IMG/VR virus record: IMGVR_UViG_2778261316_000001
Location: 1-24,643 of that record
Direction: 5' to 3' (one strand)
Length of the DNA stretch: 24,643 bases
Origin: a virus
Taxonomy: Duplodnaviria > Heunggongvirae > Uroviricota > Caudoviricetes
Shown here: piece after piece, positions 1 through 22,012 of the stretch
How the letters are laid out: every line of letters begins with the position of its first letter
Position numbering within the stretch: position 1 is the stretch's first letter
Notes under the pieces: generated by a model
The model's database searches: none
The model's input: the letters and a program-made list of their open reading frames with translations, nothing else
What the model was told of the DNA's origin: nothing
Position numbers and translations under genes: made by a program

Positions 1-111
1 TCCACCTGCAAAATAAGTGGGTGCTTAAGTTACAGGATCCTGGATTCGGGACCAGACGGTACTCAGACGACGCTTACACTTCAGGAGGCATAACAAAAGG
101 AGTACAACGAT

Positions 112-867
112 ATGTCAACTCAACCCTTAATGAAGCATGAAGTAGTTCTTCCGGTCATCGTTGACGGCTATCACTGGGCCTGTAATCAGGACCGTATGTG
201 GAACCTGAACGAGCTACATAGGACGCTTGGGCTTCCACCTGCTAAGGAGCCGGGTCAGTGGCGTAGCTCTCTAAAAGACAAGCTCGTTAAAGATGCAAAT
301 TTGCATGTTTTAGCAGGACGCTCCGGTGGCACACTGGCAACTGAGGAAGCGGCTATTGCCTATGCGATGTGGGTCTCTGACGATTTCTACCTAAAGGTCA
401 TCCGTGCTTTCATCGCTTTACGTAACGACAAAGTGTCAGAAGCTAAGGCGCTGGCGCAGGACTCCAAGGAACTTAAGGGTCTCAAGCCTATAGCCCGTAA
501 CTGGCTGGAAAAGCTGGATAACCCGAAGCAGGGCCACACCCTGACAGAGTGTCTTAAGAATCTCGACTTCAGGCTAGGTACAAAGCTGGTATCAGCCAAG
601 GCTCTTAATGCCGTATTGAAGTCAGGGCGTATAGCTAATCCCTTCTATAGTCGCAAGCTGGACGGTCGAGGACAGCCTGTATTTGACATCTCGTCAGGTG
701 GCTGGATGACCAGCTTCAATCCGAAGGGTCTGGAGAACGGCTATTACCGTCTTCAGGATAACCACTACAACGGTCAGGAGGGGCTTAAGGTCCTCACCAA
801 GGGTTACGAGTGGCTTAAGTCCAACAAGGTCGAGCTGGTTCGTCTGTGCGCTAAGGGAGGACTCTAA
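112..867 (+). CDS. KilA-N-like domain protein (phage antirepressor/regulator-like), 251 aa
   Basis: ORF preceded by AGGAGG...AAGGAG; N-terminal ~100 aa resemble KilA-N/APSES DNA-binding domain pattern (e.g. EEAAIAYAMWVSDDFYLKVIRAF). Domain call from memory, not searched. Confidence 0.45.
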   Translation: MSTQPLMKHEVVLPVIVDGYHWACNQDRMWNLNELHRTLGLPPAKEPGQWRSSLKDKLVKDANLHVLAGRSGGTLATEEAAIAYAMWVSDDFYLKVIRAFIALRNDKVSEAKALAQDSKELKGLKPIARNWLEKLDNPKQGHTLTECLKNLDFRLGTKLVSAKALNAVLKSGRIANPFYSRKLDGRGQPVFDISSGGWMTSFNPKGLENGYYRLQDNHYNGQEGLKVLTKGYEWLKSNKVELVRLCAKGGL

Positions 868-868
868 G

Positions 869-1036
869 ATGATCGACCCGCGCACACCTGAGGGTCGCAT
901 GACTCTCCGTTACCGTGGCTACCGGACTGAAGTCATCCTGAAGGAGCTTGGTCTAGACCCGGAAGATGAGACCCGCCAGCACCAATCACGAGATGAGCTA
1001 ATAGCCCAACTGGTCGCTATGAAACTGTCTGCCTAA
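869..1036 (+). CDS. Small hypothetical phage protein, 55 aa (MIDPRTPEGRMTLRYRGYRTEVILKELGLDPEDETRQHQSRDELIAQLVAMKLSA)
   Basis: ATG 1 nt after the stop of the upstream ORF, suggesting translational coupling; not in ORF track because shorter than 60 aa. Confidence 0.3.
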   Translation: MIDPRTPEGRMTLRYRGYRTEVILKELGLDPEDETRQHQSRDELIAQLVAMKLSA

Positions 1037-1132
1037 TTTTAAAACCTTTTGAGATGACCGATGCGGGGAGACCCGTAGGCGCTACTGCGTCTGCGATACC
1101 GATAGTCTCAACTCTCAAGAGGAGTAATTACT

Positions 1133-1642
1133 ATGTCTAGCAAAGCTAGTGCGTTATTCAACAACAATGACTGGAAACTCCATGTCACCGACATCAATCT
1201 CTACGAAAACACTGTGAGTCTGGACGGTCAGTCCTACCCACTGTCCTTCGCTATTAAGACCCTGATTCCGGGCTACCTGTCAGGACTGCCTGCCACCAGC
1301 CGCGAGTCCATGGAATTACTGGAAGCTCTGGCTGAAGCTGGCGTGACCATTGGAAACTTCTTCAGCAATGACCTGATGACCGCCTACCAACGTCGCCAGC
1401 AGAACAAGCGAGCCGAGGCTGAGCGTATCGCTAAAGAGCAGCGCATTCAGGCTGAGCGTATGCGTGAAGAGAACATGACCGATGCAGAGTGGCAGAAAGA
1501 GCTACAGCGCCGCAAACAGGTCAAAGCTGAGCGCCGGACCTATGGTGAGAACCTCCGCAGTGCTACCCATTCCGCTGGTCGCTCCCGTGCCGCTATTGTC
1601 GCTGACATTGAGTCAGGCGGTAACTGGATGGACAGCCTCTAA
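1133..1642 (+). CDS. Hypothetical phage protein with charged coiled-coil segment (scaffold-like), 169 aa
   Basis: RBS AAGAGGAG upstream; central AEAERIAKEQRIQAERMREE...QKELQRRKQVKAERR heptad-like charged region. Function inferred only from composition and position. Confidence 0.4.
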   Translation: MSSKASALFNNNDWKLHVTDINLYENTVSLDGQSYPLSFAIKTLIPGYLSGLPATSRESMELLEALAEAGVTIGNFFSNDLMTAYQRRQQNKRAEAERIAKEQRIQAERMREENMTDAEWQKELQRRKQVKAERRTYGENLRSATHSAGRSRAAIVADIESGGNWMDSL

Positions 1643-1716
1643 GACAGACACACAAGTGGTCCTGACCTGATGTCGGGACCCACAGTATCTAAAACTAATT
1701 TAGGAGATTGATTATT

Positions 1717-2706
1717 ATGACCATGATTAAAGATAGCTATCAGTTCGGCATTGAGCCAGTACGTATCACCGACACCGACAACATTCAGGTAAACGAAGGT
1801 CTTCCGACTAACGCCGACCCTCAGGTCTATGCCTTCCAGTTAGCTAAGCTGGTGAAGACCATGCTCAATTCTGTACTTAAAGACGCTCAGGATAACATTC
1901 CGTTCCCTGTAGAAGTCCTGCCAGCTCGCAACAGCTTACCGACGCCAATCATTGCTCACACTCTGGCTGACCGCTCTGTGGTCGTTCCTGTCCGTGGTGG
2001 TAAACGACCTGAAGTCGTGACCGCTCCGTCTGGTACTGAAATCACCGTTGAGCCGATTGAGCAAGCTATCCTCGTGTCCCACCAGACCAAGCTATGGGAC
2101 GCTAAGTCATCCACCGGATTCACTCAGGGCACACTTCAGCAGGACGCTATGAACATCTGTGAGAATGTGGTCCGTACCATCAACGCTCGCATGGTCGACG
2201 TTCTGGAGTCCTCCAAACTGTTGAAGACCGTAGAGCTTCCTGTCCTGACTGGTAGCCTGACCGCTAAGGCAGACGATATCATGGACGCTCTGTATGACAA
2301 CACCGAGCCATCTTTCGGTTCTGAGGTTTCTGACTATGGCATTATCGCCCATGAGTCACACATCAAGGCTCTCTCTCGTCTGGCTGCTAAGCAGGGCTTC
2401 TCTGGTGAAGACGCTATCGTGGATATGCTGGGTACCGACATCGCGTATTACAACGGTGAGGACAAAGGTGTGTTCATGTTGGCTAAACGCTTCACGGCCC
2501 TGAGCTTCGGCTGCTTCCGTCACGACGGTGAGAATATTACGGTCGTCCTTTCACGTGATGGCGACTCTCAGTCCCACGACTTGGAAATCCTCGGTAAAGT
2601 GTTCGTTGTCGCTGAAGCTGCTACGACCGTCAAGATGGGCACTGGCTCAGCTACTGCCGTCCTGCCTGTAGTCAAACGCCTGAAGTTCACCAAGACCGAA
2701 GCGTAA
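1717..2706 (+). CDS. Hypothetical phage structural protein, possible major capsid protein, about 329 aa
   Basis: TAGGAG 10 nt upstream of ATG at 1717 (track start 1708 is TTG); T/V/A-rich, low K/R composition and size typical of capsid proteins; follows the coiled-coil ORF. Product is a guess. Confidence 0.4.
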   Translation: MTMIKDSYQFGIEPVRITDTDNIQVNEGLPTNADPQVYAFQLAKLVKTMLNSVLKDAQDNIPFPVEVLPARNSLPTPIIAHTLADRSVVVPVRGGKRPEVVTAPSGTEITVEPIEQAILVSHQTKLWDAKSSTGFTQGTLQQDAMNICENVVRTINARMVDVLESSKLLKTVELPVLTGSLTAKADDIMDALYDNTEPSFGSEVSDYGIIAHESHIKALSRLAAKQGFSGEDAIVDMLGTDIAYYNGEDKGVFMLAKRFTALSFGCFRHDGENITVVLSRDGDSQSHDLEILGKVFVVAEAATTVKMGTGSATAVLPVVKRLKFTKTEA

Positions 2707-2711
2707 GACCA

Positions 2712-2951
2712 ATGGGTAAGAGCATTAGTAAAGGCTTCAGGTCCATCGCCAAGGGCCTGACAGGTGGTGCTGGGACTCAAGGTGGGGCTTCGGTCCCGCC
2801 TCCTGTAGCTCCTCCTGTAGCTCCTCCAGATGACGCTCAGCAAGCTGTAGTCGATACCCAAGGTCAGGAGACCGAGGGAGGTAAGACCATGAGCAGAGGT
2901 AAGTCTGGACTGAATATCAGCAGGACTTCAGGTGGTGGGCTATCACTGTGA
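2712..2951 (+). CDS. Small Gly/Pro-rich hypothetical protein, 79 aa (contains PPPVAPPVAPP)
   Basis: ORF starts 6 nt after the upstream stop, same strand as the block. Confidence 0.3.
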   Translation: MGKSISKGFRSIAKGLTGGAGTQGGASVPPPVAPPVAPPDDAQQAVVDTQGQETEGGKTMSRGKSGLNISRTSGGGLSL

Positions 2952-2961
2952 TTAACTAACT

Positions 2962-2987
2962 ATGGTCTGGACCAATGGTCTGGACCT
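2962..2987. repeat. Tandem direct repeat ATGGTCTGGACC x2 (1-nt spacer)
   Basis: Read directly: ctATGGTCTGGACCaATGGTCTGGACCtg; related copies (AAGTCCAGACC, GGTCCTGACC, AATGACACAAGTCTGG, AATGACACAAGGTCTTG) lie in 3280-3375. Confidence 0.5.
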
Positions 2988-3027
2988 GTTGTTAATGTAA
3001 TAATATAACATAACAGATAGGGGCTTT

Positions 3028-3183
3028 ATGTCTATGACTTCCGCAGACCTGAAGTCCCTCCTGACTCTGGTCTATAAACTCGTGTTCCTCTCTGTGGGTC
3101 TCTACATGGTCCTCTCTGGTCGACTCGGTGTGGATGTGTTCGACACTCTGTCTAAGGCTGTGGGTGGACTTCTAGGTCCTTAG
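3028..3183 (+). CDS. Small predicted membrane protein, 51 aa (MSMTSADLKSLLTLVYKLVFLSVGLYMVLSGRLGVDVFDTLSKAVGGLLGP)
   Basis: GGGG upstream of ATG; one hydrophobic helix; last ORF before the junction region. Confidence 0.3.
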   Translation: MSMTSADLKSLLTLVYKLVFLSVGLYMVLSGRLGVDVFDTLSKAVGGLLGP

Positions 3184-3376
3184 GTTTGGACTCACAGTGG
3201 GACCGATGGTTTCTGACAGAAAAATGTGAATGACCATCTAATACATTAAGCCAGCAGACTTCCCCCCATAGGCCCACCTCAAGTCCAGACCGAGGCCACC
3301 GGGGGTCCTGACCAGCCGTCTAGACATCCAGTCTAATGACACAAGTCTGGCACAAAGAATGACACAAGGTCTTGAC

Positions 3377-4834
3377 TCAATGCAGGACCTCAGGCCTACT
3401 AAGGGTCCGCTTCAAGTCCTTGTAGTTCCAGATGAACTTAATGGGCACATCCAGTTTATCTTTGCCGCGGACGCCGTCGCGGATTGCCGTCATTTGCGGA
3501 CCATGATCGATAGCATCTGTCCAGCTGAAGCAGGAGATTGACGTTTTGACCGGATTATCCAGCACCGGCAGGCGTTCTATGGTAATGGTATAGGTCGATT
3601 CACGCGCGCCACTATTTCCGCCGCTGATGCCGACATTGCCCGTCAAAATAGGTAACATAGCAATAGCGCGTGCAGTCAGTTCGCCGTTTGCCTGGCGTTG
3701 TGGCCCCCAGCCCTGGCAGATATAAGCGGGTTTTGCTGTGCCAATTTCACGCGCCAGTTTGATGATACGGTCCTCCGGGATACCGGTAATTTGCGAAGCC
3801 CACTGCGGCGTTTTCGCTGTTTTATCGTCACCTTCACCAAGAATATAGGCTTTATAGTGACCATTTTTGGGTGCATCTGCGGGTAAGGTTTTTTCGTCAT
3901 AGCCGACGCAGTATTTATCGAGAAAAGATTGATCAACGAGATTTTCGTTAATCAATACCCAGGCAATACCCGCAACCAGCGCGGCATCGGTGCCCGGGCG
4001 AATAGGGAGCCATTCGTCTTCACGACCGGCAGCCGTATCGGTATATCGCGGATCGATAACAATCATTTTGGCGTTCGATTTCTCGCGCGCTTTTTCAAGA
4101 AGATAAGTGATGCCACCACCGCTCATGCGGGTTTCTGCCGGGTTGTTACCAAACATCACGACCAGCTTGCTGTTTTCAATATCCGTGGTGCTGTTGCCAT
4201 CATTACTGCCGTAGGTGTAGGGCATGGCACAGGAAATTTGCGCAGTGCTGTAGGAGCCATACTGGTTGAGTGAACCGCCGTAGCAGTTCATCAGGCGTTT
4301 GACCGCCGAGGCTGATGGCGAAGAGCGGGTCATATTGCCGCCAACGATCCCCGAAGAGTACTGAATATATACAGCCTCATTGCCATATTGTTCGACGGTT
4401 TTCTTCAGGCTACTGGCGATAGTATCCAGGGCTTCATCCCAGCTAATCCGTTCGAATTTGCCTTCGCCGCGTTTGCCCACGCGTTTCATTGGGTAATTCA
4501 AGCGATCGGGATGATTAATACGCCGGCGGATGGAGCGACCGCGCAAACAGGCGCGTACCTGATGGTTGCCGTACTCATCGCTGCCGGTATTGTCAGTTTC
4601 CACCCAGGTCACTTCATTATCTTTAACATGTAGACGAAGTGCACAGCGGCTACCACAGTTGACGGAACAGGCACCCCAGACCACTTTTTCGCGGGCCTGT
4701 TGTACCGATGCTGCTGCATTGCGCAGGGTAAACGGCAAAGAAAAACCGCCTGCAGCCAGCGCCAGAGAACCTATCGCGGTAGATTTAACGAGTGTTCTGC
4801 GGCTGATGCCCACCATTCGTTCATTTTTGGACAT
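3377..4834 (-). pseudogene. ynfE: ynfE truncated: N-terminal ~471 codons of DMSO-reductase-family molybdoenzyme catalytic subunit, Tat signal present
   Basis: Begins MSKNERMVGISRRTLVKSTAIGSLALAAG (twin-arginine motif) with CxxCxxxC cluster; homology to YnfE/DmsA ends after ...VPIKFIWNY (about 3422); last 14 codons (KDLKRTLSRPEVLH) are read-through into foreign DNA. Full-length protein is about 800 aa. Confidence 0.8.
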
Positions 4835-10194: not shown

Positions 10195-11475
10195 TTAATT
10201 TTTCATTGCTTCGTTATGGGGCATGGTTGGGGCAAACTCGCTTAACTGTGTATTTAACAAAGCTACCTGTGCATTATTGTTTTCAGACATCCATTTTCCG
10301 TATACCTGAAATACCATTTGCGCATCTGCATGGCCCATCTGGTTTGCTATAAATGCCGGGTTAGCACCAGCTGTCAGCGACCAGCAGGCATAAGTATGTC
10401 TCGACTGATATGATTTTCGATGGCGGAGTCCGGCACGTTTTATCGCTGCGTCCCACATCTGCCTTATTGAGTCAACGGTAAAATGGTCACCATAATTTTT
10501 TACTCTCGCTGACACTTCAGGTTGAAAAACAAAGGTGCATTTTTGTTTTTCTGTTCTGCCATACTCTCTGAGGTGAACATCAATGATATGCTCTTTGCTC
10601 AGTCTCGTTAATGTCATCTGACTCCGGAGAGCGTCGATTGCTGGCTTAATAAGATGAATGACCCGATTGGTTCCCGCCTGTGTTTTTGGTACCGTGAAAC
10701 GGTCTTTTGCTAAATTTCTCCTGATCATCATTGTTCCATTTTTCAGATCTATGTCCTCCCATCCAAGTGCACACAGCTCACCAGGGCGAACGCCAGTATA
10801 AACAGAAACACACCATAAATTTTTGGCTTGCTGATTTCTGCACGCATCGATAAGACGGATGAATTCCTCCCGCGAAAGAGGATCCGGAATGGTTCTTGAT
10901 TCCTTTAATGGCGAGATCCCCTTAAACGGGTTATCTGCCAAGTAACCGTTATCAACACCAAACTGGAACACGGCGTTAAGATTTGTCATGTAATTATTTA
11001 CAGTTACAGCCGATCTCCCTGGTTGTGTAACAATATAGTTACTTTTGGGGATCTGGTATCCAGTCAGTAGCTCTTTACGAACCTCCAGTAATTTTTCTTT
11101 ATTAATCGATGAGGCAAGATTTTTTTCACCGATTATGCTCAGGATATTTTTGATGACGGCACGGTATGTGTTGAGTGATGTTTTTGCGACTTCAGTTTCT
11201 TTCAGTGCCAGAAATTTTTCAGCCAGTTCTTTTATGGTTAAATCTTGTCGGGCCTCACCAAATTTTTCCAGATTGCGTGAGGAGGGAAACTGTTTTGCAT
11301 AGTCGAAAACACCAGTTTTTATTGCGTAACAAACAGAGGCGCGTAGTTCACCTGCAACGCGCCTGTTTTTTGCTGTGTCAGGAACCCCCAGATTTTCCCT
11401 GACTCTTACGCCTTTATAAACAAACCAGATACGTAATTTCCCTCCATGGTTTTCCACGCCTGTCGGATATTTCAT
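10195..11475 (-). CDS. int: Phage tyrosine integrase (lambda/Rac IntR-like), about 426 aa
   Basis: N-terminus MKYPTGVENHGGKLRIWFVYKGVRVRE resembles IntR-type integrases; C-terminal catalytic region with HxxR and terminal Tyr context (SYQSRHTYACW...HADAQMVFQVYGKW); adjacent to the ydfJ junction. Confidence 0.85.
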   Translation of the reverse strand: MKYPTGVENHGGKLRIWFVYKGVRVRENLGVPDTAKNRRVAGELRASVCYAIKTGVFDYAKQFPSSRNLEKFGEARQDLTIKELAEKFLALKETEVAKTSLNTYRAVIKNILSIIGEKNLASSINKEKLLEVRKELLTGYQIPKSNYIVTQPGRSAVTVNNYMTNLNAVFQFGVDNGYLADNPFKGISPLKESRTIPDPLSREEFIRLIDACRNQQAKNLWCVSVYTGVRPGELCALGWEDIDLKNGTMMIRRNLAKDRFTVPKTQAGTNRVIHLIKPAIDALRSQMTLTRLSKEHIIDVHLREYGRTEKQKCTFVFQPEVSARVKNYGDHFTVDSIRQMWDAAIKRAGLRHRKSYQSRHTYACWSLTAGANPAFIANQMGHADAQMVFQVYGKWMSENNNAQVALLNTQLSEFAPTMPHNEAMKN

Positions 11476-11509: not shown

Positions 11510-11761
11510 TCAAGTAAGATGACGTCTTGGTCTCGCTGATGCCTGGCGCTCAATCCAGCGATCAATTTCTTCCAGGTTGTAAAAGCATGGGCTGTTATCC
11601 CATGGCATACCGTCATGAGCGACATGCTTATATTCCCTTCCTTCCATAAACGATTTTTCCCGGGCCTTTTTTAACGTACCTTTTTTTATTCCTTTCAGCG
11701 CAATTAACTGCTCTTCGGATACCCATTTGCCGGGAGAGACAATCATGATTACTTCGCTCAT
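11510..11761 (-). CDS. xis: Putative excisionase (YdaQ/Xis-like), 83 aa
   Basis: Small basic protein immediately upstream of int on the same strand; resembles recalled Rac YdaQ. Confidence 0.6.
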   Translation of the reverse strand: MSEVIMIVSPGKWVSEEQLIALKGIKKGTLKKAREKSFMEGREYKHVAHDGMPWDNSPCFYNLEEIDRWIERQASARPRRHLT

Positions 11762-11833: not shown

Positions 11834-14305
11834 TTAAGAATCAGCCTGACTCGGGATCAGTTTTTGCCAGATAACTGAAACGTATTTTGCCTGGTAACGG
11901 GCGTCATCAAGTGCATTATGGCGCTCACCTTCGAATGGAATAGCCGTTCTGGCATCGAAGTCTATGGCTTTCCCCAGCTCAACGATTGTGCGTACATCGC
12001 GATCGTTGTAGTAACGCCACGGGCAGGGGATCCCCTGCCGTTCGTATGAACGGCGCAAAATCGTGTTGTCGAAGTTGGCTCCATTTCCCCAAACCTGAAC
12101 AAAAAATTCACCGGAGTTTTCGTCGATAAATTCCCGCAATTGTAACAGTGCATCATCTAACGGGATTTCATCGGTCATAATGGCAGATTGCGCTTCGCGT
12201 GATTGCTTAAGCCACCATTTAATGGTGTCCCGATCAATGACTCCGCCAGCAGTTTCCAGATCGATAGTCTTACTAAATTCCGGTCCCATATCTCCGGTTT
12301 GCGGATCGAAAAATATTGCACCTATTGAGATGATCGGGGCATCAGGATTTTTTCCCATGGTTTCAAGGTCGATCATTAGATGGTCACACGTCCTGCTGGT
12401 GGATGTGATTTCGTGATGACCGTTCACCTTAATTGAGTGATCTGCCGTCTCGCCAGTTTCATTATCGCTATTGTGATGCTGATTGCCGCCAGTGTTCTCC
12501 TTGTGTGGATGTTCAGCGCCTTCCATTTCCTCCAGATCATCTTCCTGAACTTCAACCTGATACTCTTCATCGAATGTTTCCTGGTATGTTGCGTCGCCCA
12601 TCACCGCGCCACAATCAGGGCAGTTGCCGCCGCCGGTCTGACCGCAGGCGGTGCAGACTTTTTCCACTTCCAGTTGCGCCACTGGTTCAGGCTGTTTCGT
12701 TTCTGGCTCGTTTTGTAACGCATTTGTGCTGTTTTGTTCCGCTTTTTGGTAGTTCCGTTCCGATTCATGCTGGTTCTGGTTCACAGAATCGCGGGTCTGG
12801 ATCCCCTTAACCCATTTCGGATCATTCGGGTCACTAATCCCTTCAACAAATTCACCACGTGATGCAGCAAGCAACTTATCGGCGTCAGGCTGGCTGATAT
12901 TGGCTGCCTGCATAATTTTGTTTACTTCGTCAGCGGTAACTTTTATCGGCTCTGGTTGTTCTGAATCTTCAGCGGTATCTACATTTTGCGGTAAGCCCGT
13001 GTATGTGCCATTTTTTCGGGCAAAATATTCTTCTTTTGTGATTTCAGTGGCGCCAGCAGCCAGTGCCTTATCCAGACCAGAAAGTTTGTTTGCGCGACCG
13101 TATTTTTCTCCGTCCTTATCTGCGAAGAGGAAATAGAACGGCCCCTCACGCTCTACAGATGGTTCAGCTTCCGGCGCGGTTTCATTTTTTGGGATATCAG
13201 ATACCTCAGTTTCCACTGCATCAGTTTGTGTTTCTGATGACTGGAGAACATCAACAGTGCCCAGGTCTGTTTCTTCATTCTCAAACACGCCCTTTGTCGT
13301 CAGGTATTCGCAGATATATTTGTTCAGTGCTATGGGATCTTTGTGAATGTCGATCGGACGCTCACGGACAAGGCCAAAAATAGTCTGGCGGTCGTAGCGA
13401 AGGGCATCAGGCTGTTTGCGCATTGATGCCGAGATACGCTTCCAGTCTTCGCGGTCGTTGTCGATAACTTCTTTTTTTGCCCAGCGATGGATGCTGCCGT
13501 CAATGTTTCCGGCATCCACATCACCAGGCCAGAGAGCGTAGGCCAGTTCGTCATCCAGTGTTTTCCATGTCTGCTTGTATTCGCGATGAATGGCAGCAAT
13601 GACCGGGCTGATTTTTCCTGTTGAATTTTCAGTGTACTGTTGATTGGTTCTGGCGCGGGCGAGATCAACAACAGACGTGTATTTTCCGGTTTCCTTGCGT
13701 TCACCTTCGCGACGTTTTTTCCAGATGCGCATCTCTGCCTGAATTTCGGGCCATTTAGCACCAGGAATACATTTATGCTTAACCCACCCAATGGCGTGCA
13801 ACTTAAGCTCCGGATACATGGCGTTAACTTCTGGCATTTTCATCAACGCTTCAACGATATGTCCGTCGAATGTTGCCATGTCTTCCTGCAACAATTCCTG
13901 TGCGCTAATAACCATATCAACGGTGATGTTTTCACATGTGTCGAACTTAACCATGACAGCGTTCTGTACTTCAGGGGCCAGCTTGTCAAAAGTGACGTTC
14001 ATCGGATCGGATTCAGTCTCAACCGGGACAAAAGAAGCAGACTCCTCATCCCAGCGGTTTTCCTGCATATATTCAGCATCCCATGAATCGAGGGCAGGGC
14101 GGGGTATGCCAGGTTTATCCTCGCAGACAATAAATTTATAAGCGCAGTCCTGAGCAGCCGGATAATGTTCCAGGAACTGCCAGTGAAATTTTGCTCGAGC
14201 ACGGCGTTCGTCGCCAGCTTCAATGGCTGTGGCTACAGCCACAGCGCCTTCTTCCCTTGTTGCCAGTTCGTCAGGAATAGCGGCGCAAATAAAGACTTTA
14301 CTCAT
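11834..14305 (-). CDS. RecE-like exonuclease VIII family protein with C-terminal DnaQ-like (DEDDh) 3'-5' exonuclease domain and internal Cys4 zinc ribbon, 823 aa
   Basis: Middle segment DADKLLAASRGEFVEGISDPNDPKWVKGIQTRD matches a recalled RecE segment; C-terminus has MIDLETMG, WGNGANFDN and HNALDDARY (Exo I/II/III motifs); CTACGQTGGGNCPDCG zinc ribbon. Confidence 0.7.
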   Translation of the reverse strand: MSKVFICAAIPDELATREEGAVAVATAIEAGDERRARAKFHWQFLEHYPAAQDCAYKFIVCEDKPGIPRPALDSWDAEYMQENRWDEESASFVPVETESDPMNVTFDKLAPEVQNAVMVKFDTCENITVDMVISAQELLQEDMATFDGHIVEALMKMPEVNAMYPELKLHAIGWVKHKCIPGAKWPEIQAEMRIWKKRREGERKETGKYTSVVDLARARTNQQYTENSTGKISPVIAAIHREYKQTWKTLDDELAYALWPGDVDAGNIDGSIHRWAKKEVIDNDREDWKRISASMRKQPDALRYDRQTIFGLVRERPIDIHKDPIALNKYICEYLTTKGVFENEETDLGTVDVLQSSETQTDAVETEVSDIPKNETAPEAEPSVEREGPFYFLFADKDGEKYGRANKLSGLDKALAAGATEITKEEYFARKNGTYTGLPQNVDTAEDSEQPEPIKVTADEVNKIMQAANISQPDADKLLAASRGEFVEGISDPNDPKWVKGIQTRDSVNQNQHESERNYQKAEQNSTNALQNEPETKQPEPVAQLEVEKVCTACGQTGGGNCPDCGAVMGDATYQETFDEEYQVEVQEDDLEEMEGAEHPHKENTGGNQHHNSDNETGETADHSIKVNGHHEITSTSRTCDHLMIDLETMGKNPDAPIISIGAIFFDPQTGDMGPEFSKTIDLETAGGVIDRDTIKWWLKQSREAQSAIMTDEIPLDDALLQLREFIDENSGEFFVQVWGNGANFDNTILRRSYERQGIPCPWRYYNDRDVRTIVELGKAIDFDARTAIPFEGERHNALDDARYQAKYVSVIWQKLIPSQADS

Positions 14306-14398: not shown

Positions 14399-14590
14399 TT
14401 AAAGACCTGCCGGGATTTCGATATTATCCTGGTGAATAACTTTATCGACCGGGTAACAGTTACCGGGAATTTTCTGTTCGGTTGCTGCAGTCATACACTC
14501 CTGCATTGTCCTGTGCACACTGACTGCAATATCAACTGGCTCTCCGGAAACAAGAAAAACTGTCAGAACAAGCACAAATGCTGAATTCAT
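14399..14590 (-). CDS. ydfD: YdfD-like small prophage protein, 63 aa
   Basis: MNSAFVLVLTVFLVSGEPVDIAVSV... one hydrophobic helix; start overlaps the dicB stop (ATGA); position after dicB as in Qin. Confidence 0.7.
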   Translation of the reverse strand: MNSAFVLVLTVFLVSGEPVDIAVSVHRTMQECMTAATEQKIPGNCYPVDKVIHQDNIEIPAGL

Positions 14591-14775
14591 TGTGCACATC
14601 CTTTTGGCATCAGACGTAAACGAGCCAGCATTGAAACAATGCATATTTTATTTAATAGCTCCCGTTCTTGTTTTCTCTTGTTAATGGCATCTTCAGTAAA
14701 TACTGGGTTACTGATAGTGACACCAATTTCAAAACAACCTTCAGACGTATTAACGTTTGGTAATAACGTTTTCAT
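14587..14775 (-). CDS. dicB: Cell-division inhibitor DicB, 62 aa
   Basis: MKTLLPNVNTSEGCFEIGVTISNPVFTEDAINKRKQERELLNKICIVSMLARLRLMPKGCAQ matches recalled DicB; lies just downstream of dicF on the same strand. Confidence 0.85.
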   Translation of the reverse strand: MKTLLPNVNTSEGCFEIGVTISNPVFTEDAINKRKQERELLNKICIVSMLARLRLMPKGCAQ

Positions 14776-14949: not shown

Positions 14950-15002
14950 GGGCGGCAGAGCAGTCACGGAGTAAAACTGATACCGCCAAACGTCACCAGA
15001 AA
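14950..15002 (-). ncRNA. dicF: DicF small RNA (53 nt) with intrinsic terminator
   Basis: Reverse complement reads TTTCTGGTGACGTTTGGCGGTATCAGTTTTACTCCGTGACTGCTCTGCCGCCC followed by TTTTT, identical to the recalled K-12 DicF sequence. Confidence 0.9.
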
Positions 15003-15342: not shown

Positions 15343-15561
15343 CTAACGCGGGTATGTAATCATTCTGGCAATGCTTAATGCCGCTGCTTTTTCCAGATTG
15401 GTGATATCCTGCTCCAGAGCGGACAGATTTTCAGCCTGCTTAGCCCTGGTTTCATTGGCCCATTTCAAATCCTGCGCTGCATTAATTTTCTGGCGCATCC
15501 ACTCATAAAGTTCATCATCGGTATAGTCTGGCGCGATGATGACGGGTTCTCGTTTCTGCAT
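15343..15561 (-). CDS. ydfC: YdfC-like prophage protein, 72 aa
   Basis: Size and position (between ydfB and dicF) match the Qin dicB operon; sequence MQKREPVIIAPDYTDDELYEWMRQ... resembles recalled YdfC. Confidence 0.7.
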   Translation of the reverse strand: MQKREPVIIAPDYTDDELYEWMRQKINAAQDLKWANETRAKQAENLSALEQDITNLEKAAALSIARMITYPR

Positions 15562-15590
15562 ACTGATTCCTCGCGGTGCTGTTTCGCTTA

Positions 15591-15719
15591 TCAGCCGTTA
15601 GATTTTGCCGAACTGGAAAGCGCCTGTTTAAATTCGTTGAAGCTGAGAGCTTCTTCGCCGTCGGCAAGACCTTCCAAGTATTCTTCGTAAGCCTTTTCCA
15701 TGATTGTGTCGAAATCCAT
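15591..15719 (-). CDS. ydfB: YdfB-like prophage protein, 42 aa (MDFDTIMEKAYEEYLEGLADGEEALSFNEFKQALSSSAKSNG)
   Basis: Found by manual translation (below track cutoff); start is 2 nt after the ydfA stop; size matches K-12 YdfB. Confidence 0.6.
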   Translation of the reverse strand: MDFDTIMEKAYEEYLEGLADGEEALSFNEFKQALSSSAKSNG

Positions 15720-15720
15720 A

Positions 15721-15876
15721 TCACTCACCTGGGTTTCTTTCCAGCCAGCGACGGGCACCATTTTCGGTTTTAAACGTTTTGCTTTTGGTATACGTCATCG
15801 CGGTGAACGTACCGTCCTGGTTGGGGAACACGCCACATACCAGAGATTCGCTGTTGCCAAGATCGATAGTATCCAT
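15721..15876 (-). CDS. ydfA: YdfA-like prophage protein (DUF1391), 51 aa
   Basis: MDTIDLGNSESLVCGVFPNQDGTFTAMTYTKSKTFKTENGARRWLERNPGE; first gene downstream of the dicB-operon promoter. Confidence 0.7.
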   Translation of the reverse strand: MDTIDLGNSESLVCGVFPNQDGTFTAMTYTKSKTFKTENGARRWLERNPGE

Positions 15877-16044: not shown

Positions 16045-16452
16045 TTATTTTATTGATTTATTTTTACGCGCTTTAAGCATTTCTTCGAAGAGTTTGTTGA
16101 AGTTTTCTACTCTTGCGCGCATTTCAGACAGCAAGGCTTCCTGCTCGGAAGATGGAAGAGCATCGAATAATTCGATCAATTCTTTGTGGTTGGGAGTTAG
16201 CTCTGTTTCCACATGAAGTTCTTGTGCAGGCACTGGTGCCTTGTCTTCGTCACCAAACATTAGCCATGTAGGTGAGCACTTCAGAGCATCCGCTAAAGCA
16301 AACAATCGTTTTCCGACTGGCTGGGTTTCGTCTCTTTCCCATTGTGAAATTGTGACGTGAGCAACTCCAGCGAGGCGCGCGGCTTCTCGTTGTGTTAAGC
16401 GTAATTCTTTTCGTCGCGCCAGAACTCGCTGGCCCAGGGTTCTTGTATCCAT
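16045..16452 (-). CDS. dicA: DicA, HTH-XRE repressor (cI-like), 135 aa
   Basis: N-terminal HTH (LRLTQREAARLAGVAHVTISQWERDE); C-terminal part (FALADALKCSPTWLMFGDEDK...EMRARVENFNKLFEEMLKARK) matches recalled DicA; divergent from dicC. Confidence 0.85.
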   Translation of the reverse strand: MDTRTLGQRVLARRKELRLTQREAARLAGVAHVTISQWERDETQPVGKRLFALADALKCSPTWLMFGDEDKAPVPAQELHVETELTPNHKELIELFDALPSSEQEALLSEMRARVENFNKLFEEMLKARKNKSIK

Positions 16453-16761: not shown

Positions 16762-17266
16762 ACAGGCTCGTGAGGCTCTGGATGCCTGGATATGTCGACC
16801 AGGAATGACACAGGAGCAGGCGACGATATTAATCACTGAAGCATTCTGGGCTTTGAAAGAGCGCCCGAACATCGATGTTCAGCGTGTCACAGATGAAGGT
16901 GGCGCGGTTGATCAGCGAGCGCTTGGTGTTAATCGAGTGAAGATATTCGAACGCTGGAAGGCTATCGACACCAGGGATAAGCGTGAAAAGTTCACGGCGC
17001 TAGTGCCTGCGATTATGGAGGCTATCCGGATTAGTGATTTCAGGTTGTATCGTGAAATTACTGACGGAAAAAGCATCACGTGCATGATCGCCGGGTTAAA
17101 CAAAGAATATGGCGATGTGGTGGAGTCCGGACTGCTTTTTGCTGATCCTGCCGTAGTGGATCGTGAAACTGACGAACTTATAGAAAAAGCAATTGCTTTC
17201 AAGCTTGCGTATCGACAGCAATACCAACAAAAAGCTGGATGGAATTATGAGCCTTCTTTTTGCTGA
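16745..17266 (+). CDS. Hypothetical prophage protein, 173 aa, in the cII/YdaT position
   Basis: ORF overlapping the dicC end and the replication gene start; no motif recognised. Confidence 0.5.
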   Translation: MKITPEQAREALDAWICRPGMTQEQATILITEAFWALKERPNIDVQRVTDEGGAVDQRALGVNRVKIFERWKAIDTRDKREKFTALVPAIMEAIRISDFRLYREITDGKSITCMIAGLNKEYGDVVESGLLFADPAVVDRETDELIEKAIAFKLAYRQQYQQKAGWNYEPSFC

Positions 17267-18190
17267 ACGCCCACTGGTTATAAACACGCAGCTGGCAATG
17301 AAAATTGGCTTAAACGAAGCCATTGTTTTGCAACAACTGCACTACTGGTTGAGAGATACCAACTCCGGCATGGAATGTGATGGTGTTCGCTGGATTTATA
17401 ACACAACGGAACAATGGCTGGAACAGTTCCCATTCTGGTCAGAGTCAACGTTAAAGCGCGCGTTTGCAAGTCTGAAAACGCTGGGGCTTTTGCGTTGTGA
17501 AAAGCTCAATAAATCAAAGCGCGATATGACCAATTTCTACTTTTAGATGGTGGCAAATTGAGCGAATCCATCGGTTCAAAATGCGCCGCTCCATCAGGTC
17601 AAAATGACACGATGGAAGAGGTCAAAATGAAACGCTCCATTGGTTCAAAACGACCCAATGTCATCGGGTCAAAATGGCCTGATGATCTTACAGAGAATAC
17701 AACAGAGATTACTACAGAGAATAAAAACACTTTTCGTCCGGAAGCTTCGCAACCGGACCCGCAGACGACTGAACAGGATTCTTTAACCCGGAACTCCGAC
17801 GCGGTTGTGTTTAGTGCGAAAAAACGCCAGTGGGGTAGCAGGGAGGATTTGGCGTGTGCGCAGTGGATCTGGGGGCGGATCGTGGGTCTCTACGAACAGG
17901 CAGCCAGTGATGATGGCGAGATCATGCGACCAAAAGAGCCTAACTGGACTGCCTGGGCCAATGACGTGCGCACAATGCGGATGCTGGATGGCAGAAGCCA
18001 CAGACAAATTTGCGAAATGTTTGGTCGGGTTCAGCGAGATCCATTCTGGGTAAAAAACATCATGAGCCCGTCAAAGCTCCGCGAAAAATGGGACGAACTG
18101 GTCATCCGCCTGGGACGTTCACCTGTACAGCGTTGTGTTAATCATATTTCTGAACCGGATACAGAAATTCCGCCTGGTTTCAGAGGATAA
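17247..18190 (+). pseudogene. Phage replication initiator (O-like) split into two frames at a T-run, with origin iterons inside
   Basis: N-terminal ~100 aa (MSLLFAERPLVINTQLAMKIGLNEAIVLQQLHYWL...) in frame 0 ends at 17546; continuation in another frame from about 17513/17558 to 18190; frames meet at ctacTTTTagatgg. Confidence 0.55.
17562..17680. repeat. Five iterons (consensus TCCATYGGTTCAAAATG) at 23-24 bp spacing, followed by an A+T-rich stretch: candidate prophage replication origin
   Basis: CAAAATG/CAAAACG cores at 17577, 17600, 17623, 17646, 17670; downstream acagagaatacaacagagattactacagagaataaaaac. Confidence 0.65.
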
Positions 18191-18653: not shown

Positions 18654-19139
18654 GTGCACCGGCAACCATTCTTGATATGTGCTGTGGCAGCCGCATGTTC
18701 TGGTTCGATAAGTCTGACAAACGGGCGATATTCAGCGATATCAGAAAAGAAGGATACACATTACGCAATGGGAGACGCTTGATTATCAGCCCTGACATTA
18801 TCGCAGATTTTCGTGCATTATCATTTGCAGACGCATCTTTTTCGATGGTTGTATTAGACCCTCCGCATCTTGAGCGTGTTGGTGATAACGCCTGGATGGG
18901 AAAGAAATATGGACGGCTGAATAAAGATGCCTGGCGTGATGATTTGCGACAGAGATTTAAAGAAGCTTTTCGGGTGTTGAGGCCGCACGGCGTTCTGATT
19001 TTTTAATGGAATGAAACGCAAATACCGGTAAGCCAGATTCTGGCACTGACAGATAGAAAGCCTGTTATCTGTCAACGAACAGGGAAAAAACGATAAAACC
19101 CACTGGATTATTTTTATGAAAGAGGCATCCAGTGAGTAG
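18650..19139 (+). pseudogene. Phage DNA methyltransferase (DPPH motif) disrupted by an in-frame TAA and a frameshift in an A-run
   Basis: ILDMCCGSR (motif I-like) and VVLDPPH (motif IV); in-frame TAA at 19004-19006 inside ...GVLIF*WNETQIPVSQ...; reading shifts frame in AAAAAA at 19085-19090 to continue ...NDKTHWIIFMKEASSE. Confidence 0.6.
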
Positions 19140-19616
19140 ATTCGTAAGGTTACAGATACGTATATCTGAATAATTAAATTCAGTTCTGTAAATAAAACTT
19201 AATCCTTAACCGGATGGATTTCTGCACCCTCAGAACATCAGGAGGCCGCCCGAAAGGGCGGTAGTGAAATGCGAAAGTTCAAAATTATTATTGAAACGGA
19301 AATAGCTGGTGGAGATTTTGAGGATGTATTCGAAGTGGACGATGACGCAACACCTGATGAAATTCATGACGGAGCATAAGAAATTTTCTTTAACTACTGC
19401 AATTACTCATACCACGAAATAAAAGACGATGAGGAAGAACAAAGTGGCTGATTTTTGTTCAGCTAAATATAACATCAGTTTTGAAGAGCGGGATGAACTA
19501 TTAATGGACTATGGTGAATTACGCGGTGGAAGTGCTGCTGATGTCGAATCCTAGCGTGATGACTATGAAGCGGGAAAAACTCCGGTCGAAGCATATTGTG
19601 ATGAGTGGGGCGATGA

Positions 19617-19871
19617 ATGAGCGAGATTAATTATCAGGAAGGGCATGAAACGGCGGGGCAAGCAAAACCAGTGGCATGGCGATATCGCTACGTGAAAAAA
19701 GCGTTACGGACTTTCAGGGGAAGTAGTGGTCTGGTGACTGGAAATATGTACCGAAAAAAGAGGATTGTAACGACAGGCCGAACTATCAAATTCAGGCCTT
19801 ATTCACTGCCTCACCAGTCCCGGTTACATCAGAAGAACTGGTTAAAGCTGTGCACTTTTATGAACAACTAA
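19617..19871 (+). CDS. Hypothetical protein, 84 aa, possibly frameshifted
   Basis: Track ORF; an alternative frame from about 19700 gives a more protein-like continuation (WKYVPKKEDCNDRPNYQIQALFTASPVPVTSEELVKAVHFYEQLKREN) without a start codon. Confidence 0.3.
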   Translation: MSEINYQEGHETAGQAKPVAWRYRYVKKALRTFRGSSGLVTGNMYRKKRIVTTGRTIKFRPYSLPHQSRLHQKNWLKLCTFMNN

Positions 19872-20157
19872 AACGCGAAAATCCACCAACATCCGGCAAC
19901 TAGATTAATGGATTAACTATGTCGGTTAAACGACCAGCCAACTGAAAAAGCGGAAACCTGATTACAGGTTGCCAGATAAGGCAATGAGCTACCTGGCGCG
20001 GAACGGGCTGATAAGTATGGGGAATGTTTTACGATGAACCTTTAGACTAAAGAGTTTGTAACGCTATGTAAGTGATTTTTTCTGGTTTAGATATTTATAT
20101 GTCCGGCCAAATTGAGGTGTGTTTAAATGTAATTGCACATTGATTGTAGGAGGAATA

Positions 20158-20671: not shown

Positions 20672-22012
20672 ATGATCAAAGAGACTGTTACGATGAGTCA
20701 TAAGGAACTCCACCGACTTCAGATTATTCAGGAGTCAATTAATCGACATATTACTCAGGAACAAGCTGCGGCACGCATTGGCATTTCTATTCGGCAGGTT
20801 AAACGTCTGGTGCAACGGTATAGAAATGAAGGGCCTTCTGGTCTGGTTTCCCACCGACGTGGAAAGCGTCCTAATAATTCCTTTTCTACTGAATTCAGAG
20901 CAACAGTAATTTCACTCCTCAAAGGCCGTTACGCTGATTTTGGACCTACGTTTGCGTGCGAAAAATTGCGCGAGATACACGGTTTATCTTTATCCGTTGA
21001 AACTCTCAGAAAGTGGATGATAGAAGAGGGGTTATGGCGTGAACGCCGTCGTAAAATTGCCCGTATATATCAACGCCGCATGCGACGACCATCTTACGGT
21101 GAACTGATCCAGATTGATGGCTCACCTCATGACTGGTTTGAAAATCGAGGCCCCAGATGTACACTGATCGTTTTCATTGATGATGCCACCAGTGCGTTGA
21201 TGGCGTTGCGTTTTGTGCCTGCTGAAACAACCCGGGCTTACATGGAAACCCTCCGGGGTTACCTTAATGATCATGGCGTACCGCTCGCTCTCTACTCTGA
21301 TAGACACAGTATATTCAGGGTAAATAACCCAGAGCGGGAAGGTGAGCTGACCCAGTTCACTCGTGCGATAAAGACACTGGGCATCGAGCCAATCCATGCC
21401 AACAGCCCGCAGGCAAAAGGGCGGGTAGAGCGCGCCAATCAGACACTACAGGACAGGCTGGTCAAAGAAATGCGGCTTCAGAATATCAGTGATATTGAAA
21501 CAGCAAATGCATGGTTGCCGACCTTTATTGAAGCCTATAACAACCGGTTCGCTACGTCGCCTCGTACTACTGATAATGCTCATCTTGATGTGCACCATTC
21601 TGAAGAGGAACTGGGTTATATCTTCAGCCTACAGGCGAAGCGCGTTCTGTCTAAAAATCTCACTTTCCAGTACAAAAGCAGTGCGTTTCAGGTACGCAGT
21701 GAGAGCCGGGGATATCGACTTAGGCATTCGGTTGTTACTGTATGCGAGAACTTTGACGGTGAAATTAACGTTCTGTATGACGGGAAAGCGCTGGGCTGGG
21801 AAAAGTATGTTGATGGCCCGGAGCCTATACCACTGGATGATGAAAAGAGTGTCCATGAACGAGTGGATAATGCCCGTATTGATTTACGCTCAAAATACTA
21901 TGTTAAACCTAAAGCTGACCATCCCTGGCTTACGCGCCGAACGCAAAGTCATCAGCAAGTTAAGCCCCCGAAGTTACCTAAAAAGAAGCCTGATCCCGAT
22001 AAAAAAGATTGA
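20672..22012 (+). CDS. DDE transposase (HTH N-terminus plus rve integrase-core domain), 446 aa; IS481/ISNCY-like
   Basis: N-terminal HTH (ITQEQAAARIGISIRQVKRLVQRY), catalytic core with D...D...E pattern (IQIDGSPHDWF..., LYSDRHSIF, ...RVERANQTLQ), basic C-tail. Family assignment from memory. Confidence 0.8.
   Translation: MIKETVTMSHKELHRLQIIQESINRHITQEQAAARIGISIRQVKRLVQRYRNEGPSGLVSHRRGKRPNNSFSTEFRATVISLLKGRYADFGPTFACEKLREIHGLSLSVETLRKWMIEEGLWRERRRKIARIYQRRMRRPSYGELIQIDGSPHDWFENRGPRCTLIVFIDDATSALMALRFVPAETTRAYMETLRGYLNDHGVPLALYSDRHSIFRVNNPEREGELTQFTRAIKTLGIEPIHANSPQAKGRVERANQTLQDRLVKEMRLQNISDIETANAWLPTFIEAYNNRFATSPRTTDNAHLDVHHSEEELGYIFSLQAKRVLSKNLTFQYKSSAFQVRSESRGYRLRHSVVTVCENFDGEINVLYDGKALGWEKYVDGPEPIPLDDEKSVHERVDNARIDLRSKYYVKPKADHPWLTRRTQSHQQVKPPKLPKKKPDPDKKD

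Follow-up and report, generated by a model that had tools for sequence, protein, structure and literature searches.

A predicted 3'-5' exonuclease on a RecE-like scaffold, without recT, in the Qin prophage of Escherichia coli

The gene, its protein and the catalytic domain

The DNA analyzed here, below called the window, is a stretch of 24,643 nucleotides (IMG/VR record IMGVR_UViG_2778261316_000001, positions 1 to 24,643) and is the Qin cryptic prophage inserted beside rspB. Positions 11834-14305 on the minus strand form a single unbroken open reading frame (ORF) of 823 codons plus stop with an ATG start, and in a genome that is 100% identical to the window RefSeq has a gene at the same coordinates, WP_001515375.1, named 'exonuclease' or '3'-5' exonuclease'. 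An earlier note had described the product as a RecE-like protein in which the nuclease domain is of the DnaQ type, with a zinc ribbon and with no recT next to it. That description is borne out below, and natural hybrids show in addition that the nuclease is a cassette which can be exchanged for that of RecE.

As judged from its sequence the gene is the intact form of ydfE, a pseudogene of the Qin prophage in Escherichia coli K-12. The K-12 copy corresponds to the first 767 nt of the gene at 99.7% identity and has the same neighbors, dicB and ydfD. It differs in being interrupted by the insertion sequence (IS) element IS2 after about 255 codons, with loss of the linker and the exonuclease. Since the K-12 copy is truncated the protein has probably been neglected so far. 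The family is, however, known already, both as '3'-5' exonuclease' and through the recently defined Pfam families YdfE_N and YdfE_C; precomputed matches to PF27430 (YdfE_N) and PF27432 (YdfE_C) are found on proteins that are 87-97% identical to the one studied here.

The protein is predicted to be laid out as beads on a string, with three small folded domains joined by very acidic, disordered linkers. Its overall net charge is -65, and in the acidic linkers (residues 341-384 and 571-640) Asp and Glu make up 27-30% and the predicted local distance difference test (pLDDT) of the AlphaFold2 (AF2) model is below 50. The helical domain (residues 241-340) is the most widely conserved part of the scaffold and is matched by RecE-type as well as YdfE-type members. 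The gene and the parts of its product are the following.

11834..14305, minus: intact ydfE-type exonuclease, complete coding sequence, 823 aa (phrog_2082 match over the full length; RefSeq WP_001515375.1)
13691..14305, minus: residues 1-205, folded N-terminal domain, alpha/beta head plus helical bundle, YdfE_N type
13286..13585, minus: residues 241-340, helical domain (AF2 pLDDT 87-96)
13001..13153, minus: residues 385-435, small beta-hairpin/helix domain (AF2 pLDDT 86-94)
12431..13522, minus: residues 262-625, non-catalytic, homologous to Rac RecE 278-591 (BLASTP; NCBIfam NF007259)
12431..12913, minus: residues 465-625, highly conserved acidic linker, common to RecE; cassette crossover site (L008 hybrid)
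12608..12655, minus: residues 551-566, Cys4 knuckle CTACGQTGGGNCPDCG (AF2 pLDDT about 74; RecE has one too)
11837..12385, minus: residues 641-823, predicted DEDDh 3'-5' exonuclease domain of the DexA/Rv2179c type (Pfam PF16473; DexA 8KEL by sequence and fold)
12359..12370, minus: Exo I motif DLET (D646, E648), from alignment with DexA
12068..12082, minus: Exo II motif GANFD (D746), from alignment with DexA
11903..11920, minus: Exo III motif HNALDD (H796, D801), from alignment with DexA

In the C-terminal domain, residues 642-813 match Pfam PF16473 (Rv2179c-like) over positions 2-177 of the 177 in the profile (E value 2.3e-67; 226.5 bits against a cut-off of 27), and a weak RNase_T match overlaps the same stretch. 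A sequence search of the PDB returned only the bacteriophage T4 exonuclease DexA, in the entries 8KEL and 8KEN (E value 1.6e-6). DexA (8KEL) was also the best Foldseek match of the C-terminal domain of the AF2 model (E value 1.5e-8), followed by RNase T, DnaQ (a Cas-associated domain), oligoribonucleases (Orn) and Cap18, and the model thus contains an RNase H-like DnaQ fold; its pLDDT is mostly 63-92 per 10-residue block and falls to about 50 near residues 701-710 and 821-823. D646, E648, D746, H796 and D801 align with DexA D7, E9, D119, H186 and D191, and these five catalytic residues are kept in 66/67 unique domain sequences that were collected. Because of the fold matches, the alignment with DexA and the conservation of the catalytic residues, we infer that the C-terminal domain is a 3'-5' exonuclease, with polarity and substrate taken from family membership. 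The earlier note had assigned the C-terminus to the DEDDh 3'-5' type instead of the PD-(D/E)XK type, and both Pfam and the matches to DexA by sequence and structure agree with it.

BLASTP against the RecE of the Rac prophage (L003, annotated genome, 866 aa) aligned only residues 262-625, to RecE 278-591, with 39% identity and an E value of 2e-59; a RecE-like central segment, as noticed earlier, is thus present. Identity is much higher from residue 465 on, including LLAASRGEFVEGISDPNDPKWVKGIQTRD, the very segment that the note had singled out, and BLASTP found no similarity past RecE residue 591, which is where the RecE nuclease starts. The NCBIfam equivalog model for RecE, NF007259, gave 280 bits for the whole protein, below its curated cut-off of 1269, with residues 246-625 matching model positions 271-602 of 877. 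In the 823-aa protein Pfam found no match to the PD-(D/E)XK nuclease of RecE (PF12684/DUF3799), nor to PF06630, the N-terminus of Exonuc_VIII, though the latter model detects other members of the family. The first 260 residues are of the YdfE_N type and not the PF06630 N-terminus of RecE, and the likeness to RecE is confined to the non-catalytic, largely disordered third of the protein.

The Cys4 ribbon that had been pointed out in the acidic linker is there as well, formed by C551, C554, C562 and C565 in the spacing CxxC-x7-CxxC, although RecE carries one too (CNACGQTGGDNCPDCG in the BLASTP alignment) and only 5/38 long family representatives have it. The knuckle is real, but common to RecE and optional within the family. 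In 12/38 long family members the disordered linkers contain a short linear motif, G-x-F-S-[IV]-[DE]-G-L. Its equivalent in the window is GEFVEGIS (residues 465-472, 12890-12913), and it may dock a partner.

Exchange of the nuclease cassette and the presence of recT

A search with residues 1-625 found proteins of 900 aa that are 87-97% identical there and have PF12684 in place of PF16473. Two 900-aa hybrid genes (L007 and L008, 6001-8703) lie at the Rac attachment site, ttcA, in the gene order dicB - ydfD - 900-aa gene - recT - lar - DUF1187 - xisR - intR. Up to about residue 560 the L008 hybrid and the window protein show 100% identity, and beyond this point the hybrid is RecE-type, which places the crossover inside the linker that is shared with RecE. 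As the natural hybrids switch from the sequence of the window to the RecE nuclease, the nuclease is a swappable cassette. The hybrids show that this cassette has been exchanged, evidently by homologous recombination within the conserved linker, and the conserved acidic linker serves as the recombination joint between Qin and Rac prophage types. Hybrids that have regained the RecE nuclease have also regained recT.

The presence of recT was surveyed in 80 IMG/VR contigs with a DEDDh domain, with up to 7 kb of flanking DNA per side. All ORFs were searched with RecT, with lambda Bet, Exo and Gam, with the RecE nuclease (phmmer, RecE 596-866) and with the tail of a third class of fusions that is described below. 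RecT, Bet, lambda Exo, Gam, the RecE nuclease and the third-class tail were found at none of the 80 DEDDh loci (front of the YdfE_N type in 70, of the RecE type in 9), whereas the same procedure found RecT in 80/80 contigs that carry the RecE nuclease; because these samples are nearly clonal (at least 99% identity), 0/80 and 80/80 count places and are not independent events. As read from these sequences, the loci show that the PD-(D/E)XK cassette is always accompanied by recT and the DEDDh cassette never. In the window itself the gene is followed by xis and then int, in line with the earlier observation that no annealase gene is nearby, and no RecT, Bet or Erf was found in the full annotation of the window sequence. 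Likewise, a RecE_N+DEDDh protein in a Rac-like prophage has xis and int directly after it, without recT. A canonical RecE nuclease domain and an adjacent recT were both looked for, and neither was found; the view that the gene is not one half of a RecET-type pair is strengthened by 0/80 DEDDh loci with RecT against 80/80 RecE-nuclease loci, and a survey of prophages with the fusion, which the note had proposed, has recT absent in 80/80 DEDDh loci.

A profile search of 1.84 billion representative proteins gave 247 clusters at E <0.001, and those clusters for which the source organism was looked up are all from Enterobacterales. Among the long members all four combinations of the two N-terminal types and the two nucleases exist. 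In a single-protein search close relatives were found only in Escherichia and Shigella, and an alignment-based search for the locus in species-representative genomes found no stretch that was conserved enough.

Many family members of 680-815 aa carry neither nuclease (P0129, P0134, P0135, P0153, P0170, P0187, P0189, P0196, P0211, P0232, P0237, P0263, and P0267). What their tails have in common is a strongly conserved domain, about 200 residues long and marked by the motif KKSLTDAxKKALSxLGFSADV. The sole Pfam resemblance of this tail is to Rad52_Rad22, below threshold, with E values of 0.0017, 0.023, and 0.059 in 3/4 sequences, and RAD52 was not found by a profile search of the PDB with the tail. 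Standalone homologues of the tail occur in 173 phage records; the record of one of them, PseuP_222 (44% identity), calls it a RAD52-like annealing protein, and another, gp19 of Pseudomonas phage F116, is labelled merely 'exonuclease'. One of the fusions (L039, 5001-7337) has a weak Gam match on one side and a Sipho_Gp157 gene on the other. The third class is thus probably the scaffold plus a Rad52-like annealase, a call that rests on the motif pattern and one depositor's annotation and is kept as a lead. If it is true the scaffold bears three different DNA-end modules, all of them linked to recombination. NCBI often labels these fusions 'exodeoxyribonuclease VIII' and PHROG 2489 labels them 'exonuclease'; both labels are probably wrong, as no nuclease domain was detected there.

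The early region of F116 (L209, 10.5-18 kb) contains, besides gp19, a DEDDh 3'-5' exonuclease of the PF00929 family (gp16), a single-stranded DNA-binding protein (SSB, gp15) and a recombination-associated exonuclease (gp14), and in this phage a 3'-5' exonuclease thus sits within a recombination module. F116p16 was rejected as a homologue of the DEDDh domain, since it belongs to PF00929 and not PF16473 and has no BLASTP similarity to the domain, and it serves as an analogy only.

Pairwise ratios of nonsynonymous to synonymous substitution rates (dN/dS) among four alleles were 0.10-0.18 in residues 1-260, 0.10-0.27 in the DEDDh domain (informative comparisons) and 0.3-0.5 in the linkers. These values show that the two-metal DEDDh site, which is intact, is under purifying selection, as is the folded N-terminal end, with relaxation in the linkers. 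The full gene is present at a coverage of at least 80% in 3537/5426 complete E. coli genomes. The DEDDh cassette is present in 4048/5426 of them (about 75%), with up to seven copies per genome, and the RecE nuclease contiguous with recT in 1728/5426. The catalytic residues show no variation in a set of 30 unique close relatives, in which the most variable position inside the fold is 766 (Tyr in 17, Cys in 6, Ser in 4, His in 2 and Thr in 1; 1.74 bits). Codon 766, Tyr in the window (12008-12010), is the equivalent of DexA W152. The variation is suggestive of diversifying pressure on a substrate contact, in a small sample and without a codon model.

Position in the prophage

From the prophage end inwards the genes are int, xis, the exonuclease, ydfD, dicB, dicF, ydfC, ydfB, ydfA and a DicA-type repressor, followed by the divergent dicC/ydaT/replication region. 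The entire dicBF operon is intact in the window. The neighbors of the exonuclease gene are the following.

10195..11475, minus: tyrosine integrase, at the prophage end beside rspB (RefSeq annotation)
11510..11761, minus: excisionase (xis), directly downstream of the exonuclease with no recT between (RefSeq annotation)
14399..14590, minus: ydfD (DUF1482 lysis protein), directly upstream and in the same operon (RefSeq annotation)
14587..14775, minus: dicB, cell-division inhibitor (RefSeq annotation)
14950..15001, minus: dicF small RNA, between ydfC and dicB as in K-12 (Rfam RF00039, 76.7 bits against a gathering threshold of 48)
15343..15876, minus: ydfC, ydfB-like and ydfA small ORFs, the promoter-proximal end of the operon (RefSeq annotation)
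16045..16452, minus: DicA-type (CI-like) repressor (RefSeq annotation)

In this lambdoid prophage of the Qin/mEp460 type the exonuclease gene thus lies distally in the early-left (dicBF) operon, which is under DicA repression, and is the last gene before xis and int. At the corresponding place lambda has exo-bet and Rac has recE-recT. The dicB promoter, which is repressed by DicA, transcribes dicB, ydfD and the pseudogenes ydfE, insD7 and intQ (bioRxiv 10.1101/2024.09.21.614188). A crude scan for a sigma-70-like promoter directly upstream of the gene on the minus strand found none. The order dicB - DUF1482 - exonuclease - xis - int also occurs in an O157:H7 prophage, in a prophage at the ompW site and in the viable phage mEp460, and copies of the gene with 87-99.5% identity are carried by the phages HannyBb, PhiR42_1, Tritos and Evi and by PPompW prophages.

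Frameshifts and IS elements have degraded the right arm of the prophage, whereas the exonuclease, xis and int of the left arm are intact. A gene of the replication region that is a single ORF of 321 codons in a related genome (L004) is split in two in the window (17193-18190, plus strand), frameshifts interrupt the methyltransferase and one more ORF (about 18700-19140 and about 19600-20040, both plus strand), and a fragment of an ISEsa1 transposase lies at about 20690-21740. Positions 1-3400 of the window are a separate insertion upstream of a truncated ynfE/ynfF-like dimethyl sulfoxide (DMSO)/selenate reductase gene and contain genes for a KilA-N domain protein and a DUF6971 protein besides other hypothetical genes. 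This insertion also has an ISSen4 element in the 100% identical genome, but not in the window.

Known relatives and possible role

RecE of Rac is the relative of the scaffold. The two proteins share the early-left genomic slot before xis and int, a homologous non-catalytic middle (RecE 278-591) with the Cys4 knuckle and the GISDPNDPKW linker, and the general plan of a long acidic scaffold followed by a C-terminal nuclease, and they recombine in nature. They differ in the nuclease, which in RecE is a PD-(D/E)XK 5'-3' exonuclease for double-stranded DNA (PF12684) that works with RecT and in the window protein is of the DEDDh type, without recT. The catalytic domain of RecE is a tetrameric toroid (review PMC11611040), and its N-terminal domain has no assigned function, yet full-length RecE improves linear-linear recombination (2023 review PMC11611040).

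The structure of T4 DexA was solved in a 2025 paper, which also implicates W152 in recognition of 5-hydroxymethylcytosine (5hmC) by stacking, and D169 too (PMC12153337). DexA is the closest solved structure to the catalytic domain by sequence and fold, belongs with it to PF16473 and shares its five catalytic residues. It is, however, a standalone protein of 227 aa from a virulent phage, is only about 24% identical, has extra loops and has a tetramer contact at S87/D90, whereas the domain in the window is tethered to a 640-residue scaffold. W152, a Trp also in the EcD-like protein described next, is Tyr766 here. The equivalent of D169 lies in a loop where the alignment is gapped and unreliable, and for D90 HMMER aligns Asp718, which a shift of one residue would turn into Ala; MAFFT places the residues differently.

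EcD, a DexA homologue of E. coli, is reported to digest DNA that contains 5hmC, to leave unmodified DNA intact and to give cells protection from T4 (PMC12153337). EcD/HREX and the window domain are from the same DEDDh subfamily and the same host species, and the domain shares 38% identity with the protein that fits the EcD primers. Unlike the 823-aa fusion, EcD stands alone, at about 190 aa, and it retains the Trp. The possibility that EcD is the C-terminal domain of the 823-aa protein was rejected, because the primers (MIDTET...) and A78 fit the 38% identical standalone protein of 189-193 aa; EcD is therefore a relative of the fusion. Such a standalone DexA homologue (MNHLMIDTETLGNGPDAAIF...) was seen in L011, L026, L027, L029 and L032. 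The exact EcD reverse primer was not found in the contigs that were fetched, where the copies differ by one base, and the EcD allele itself was thus not recovered. PMC12153337 makes no mention of the 823-aa fusion or of a prophage setting, with no occurrence of 'prophage' in its main text; two word-start matches to 'rece' in it were left uninspected and may be words such as 'recent'. Rv2179c of Mycobacterium tuberculosis, the founder of PF16473, shares the Pfam family (226 bits) and differs in being a bacterial protein that stands alone; the PDB sequence search at E <0.01 did not return it.

The best explanation, held with modest confidence, is that the protein is an annealase-independent 3'-5' exonuclease on a RecE-type scaffold that takes part in processing or degrading linear DNA ends and not in annealing of the RecET type. 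The gene would be expressed together with xis and int upon induction or infection. By analogy with DexA the domain would remove nucleotides starting at free 3'-OH ends; its substrate is probably DNA and its active form probably a dimer. Such activity would produce 5' overhangs or consume single strands, and there would therefore be no 3' tail to hand to an annealase. The scaffold would bring whichever end-processing module it carries to one common partner or site, and the task of this module would be, for example, to trim 3' tails or to leave ends that host enzymes could not use. That linear DNA ends are processed or degraded in this way while the phage develops is the leading but least certain part of the explanation; it is ranked first because of the position of the gene, the other partners of the scaffold, the retention of the gene in viable phages and the F116 region, where a DEDDh exonuclease lies beside SSB and annealase-like genes. 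Several points weigh against this explanation. Polarity and the preference for DNA over RNA come from family membership, no structural relatives of the scaffold domains were found that would speak for a common target of the scaffold, and the two 80-locus samples are the nearly clonal ones described above. We know of no established place for a 3'-5' exonuclease without an annealase in lambdoid recombination. Furthermore EcD, the sole E. coli relative with a phenotype, is a defence protein and has to do with defence, not recombination.

It is conceivable, if clearly less probable, that the protein is a prophage anti-phage nuclease of the HREX/EcD kind, which would selectively degrade incoming and possibly base-modified phage DNA from its 3' ends and so protect the lysogen. 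DicB blocks phage DNA entry, and the exonuclease gene would then belong to the same 'immunity' operon as dicB. The precedent of EcD, with digestion of 5hmC DNA and protection from T4 (PMC12153337), speaks for such a role, as do the intactness of the gene in a decayed cryptic prophage with broken replication genes and IS elements, the presence of the DEDDh domain in 4048/5426 complete E. coli genomes, and the variability of residue 766, a pattern expected of an arms race at the equivalent of the 5hmC-stacking W152. On the other hand that equivalent is a Tyr and not a Trp, the operon is repressed by DicA in lysogens and the crude scan gave the gene no promoter of its own, viable phages retain the gene too, and the 640-residue scaffold, common to RecE and the annealase fusion, is left unaccounted for. 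The only PADLOC match, to a generic exonuclease effector (12 bits, E value 0.024), was not convincing and was rejected as evidence for a known defence system.

Rv2179c has been described as an RNA exonuclease, and the catalytic domain might accordingly be imagined to trim or degrade RNA 3' ends, e.g., those of host, phage or dicF-operon transcripts. The top Pfam family takes its name from the 3'-5' exoribonuclease Rv2179c, the fold also closely matches those of RNase T and oligoribonuclease, and the RNA of the operon is processed to yield DicF. K-12 nevertheless makes DicF despite its truncated ydfE, among solved structures the nearest by sequence and fold is that of DexA, a DNA exonuclease, and the scaffold otherwise bears DNA enzymes, i.e., the RecE nuclease and a probable annealase, which makes an RNA substrate improbable. 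A role in counter-defence or host takeover, in which the protein upon induction would destroy host nucleic acids that trigger or mediate immunity (e.g., the multicopy single-stranded DNA (msDNA) of retrons or linear signaling oligonucleotides) or would scavenge host DNA for nucleotides, is if anything slightly harder to credit. The earlier note had proposed it, the gene has an early-left position beside the host-directed toxins DicB, DicF and YdfD, and DexA scavenges host DNA in T4 (PMC12153337); searches of Pfam, NCBIfam, PHROG and PADLOC matched no known anti-defence family, and degradation of the host chromosome is not known from lambdoid phages. Least probable is a functionless relic kept only since a cryptic prophage holds it. 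The prophage of the window is defective and K-12 tolerates the IS2 truncation, but the dN/dS values of 0.10-0.27 in both folded ends, the conservation of the catalytic residues in 66/67 unique domains, and the intact ORF in thousands of genomes and in viable phages all speak against it.

It is tempting to speculate that the RecE/YdfE scaffold is a general tethering platform to which enterobacterial prophages attach interchangeable DNA-end modules (a 5'-3' exonuclease, a 3'-5' exonuclease or a Rad52-like annealase), and that its DEDDh form, with its most variable residue at the place where DexA contacts the base, is a modification-sensing anti-phage exonuclease of the dicBF immunity operon; this we regard as rather doubtful. 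Domain shuffling among lambdoid phages is ordinary. In the literature that was searched there was no description of a RecE scaffold with a swapped nuclease of opposite polarity, of the accompanying loss of recT, or of a third module.

The preferred explanation, an annealase-independent exonuclease on a RecE-type scaffold, has consequences for annotation, since many records name the DEDDh form 'exodeoxyribonuclease VIII', which is wrong on polarity, fold and need of a partner. The family also provides a natural experiment on the N-terminal two-thirds of RecE, with the same scaffold joined to three C-terminal modules, and the near-isogenic hybrids that differ only in the cassette allow a direct comparison. 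In E. coli the DEDDh cassette is more than twice as frequent as the RecE nuclease with recT (4048 against 1728 of 5426 genomes), and an action like that of EcD, if it is borne out, would make this a prophage defence gene of very wide distribution.

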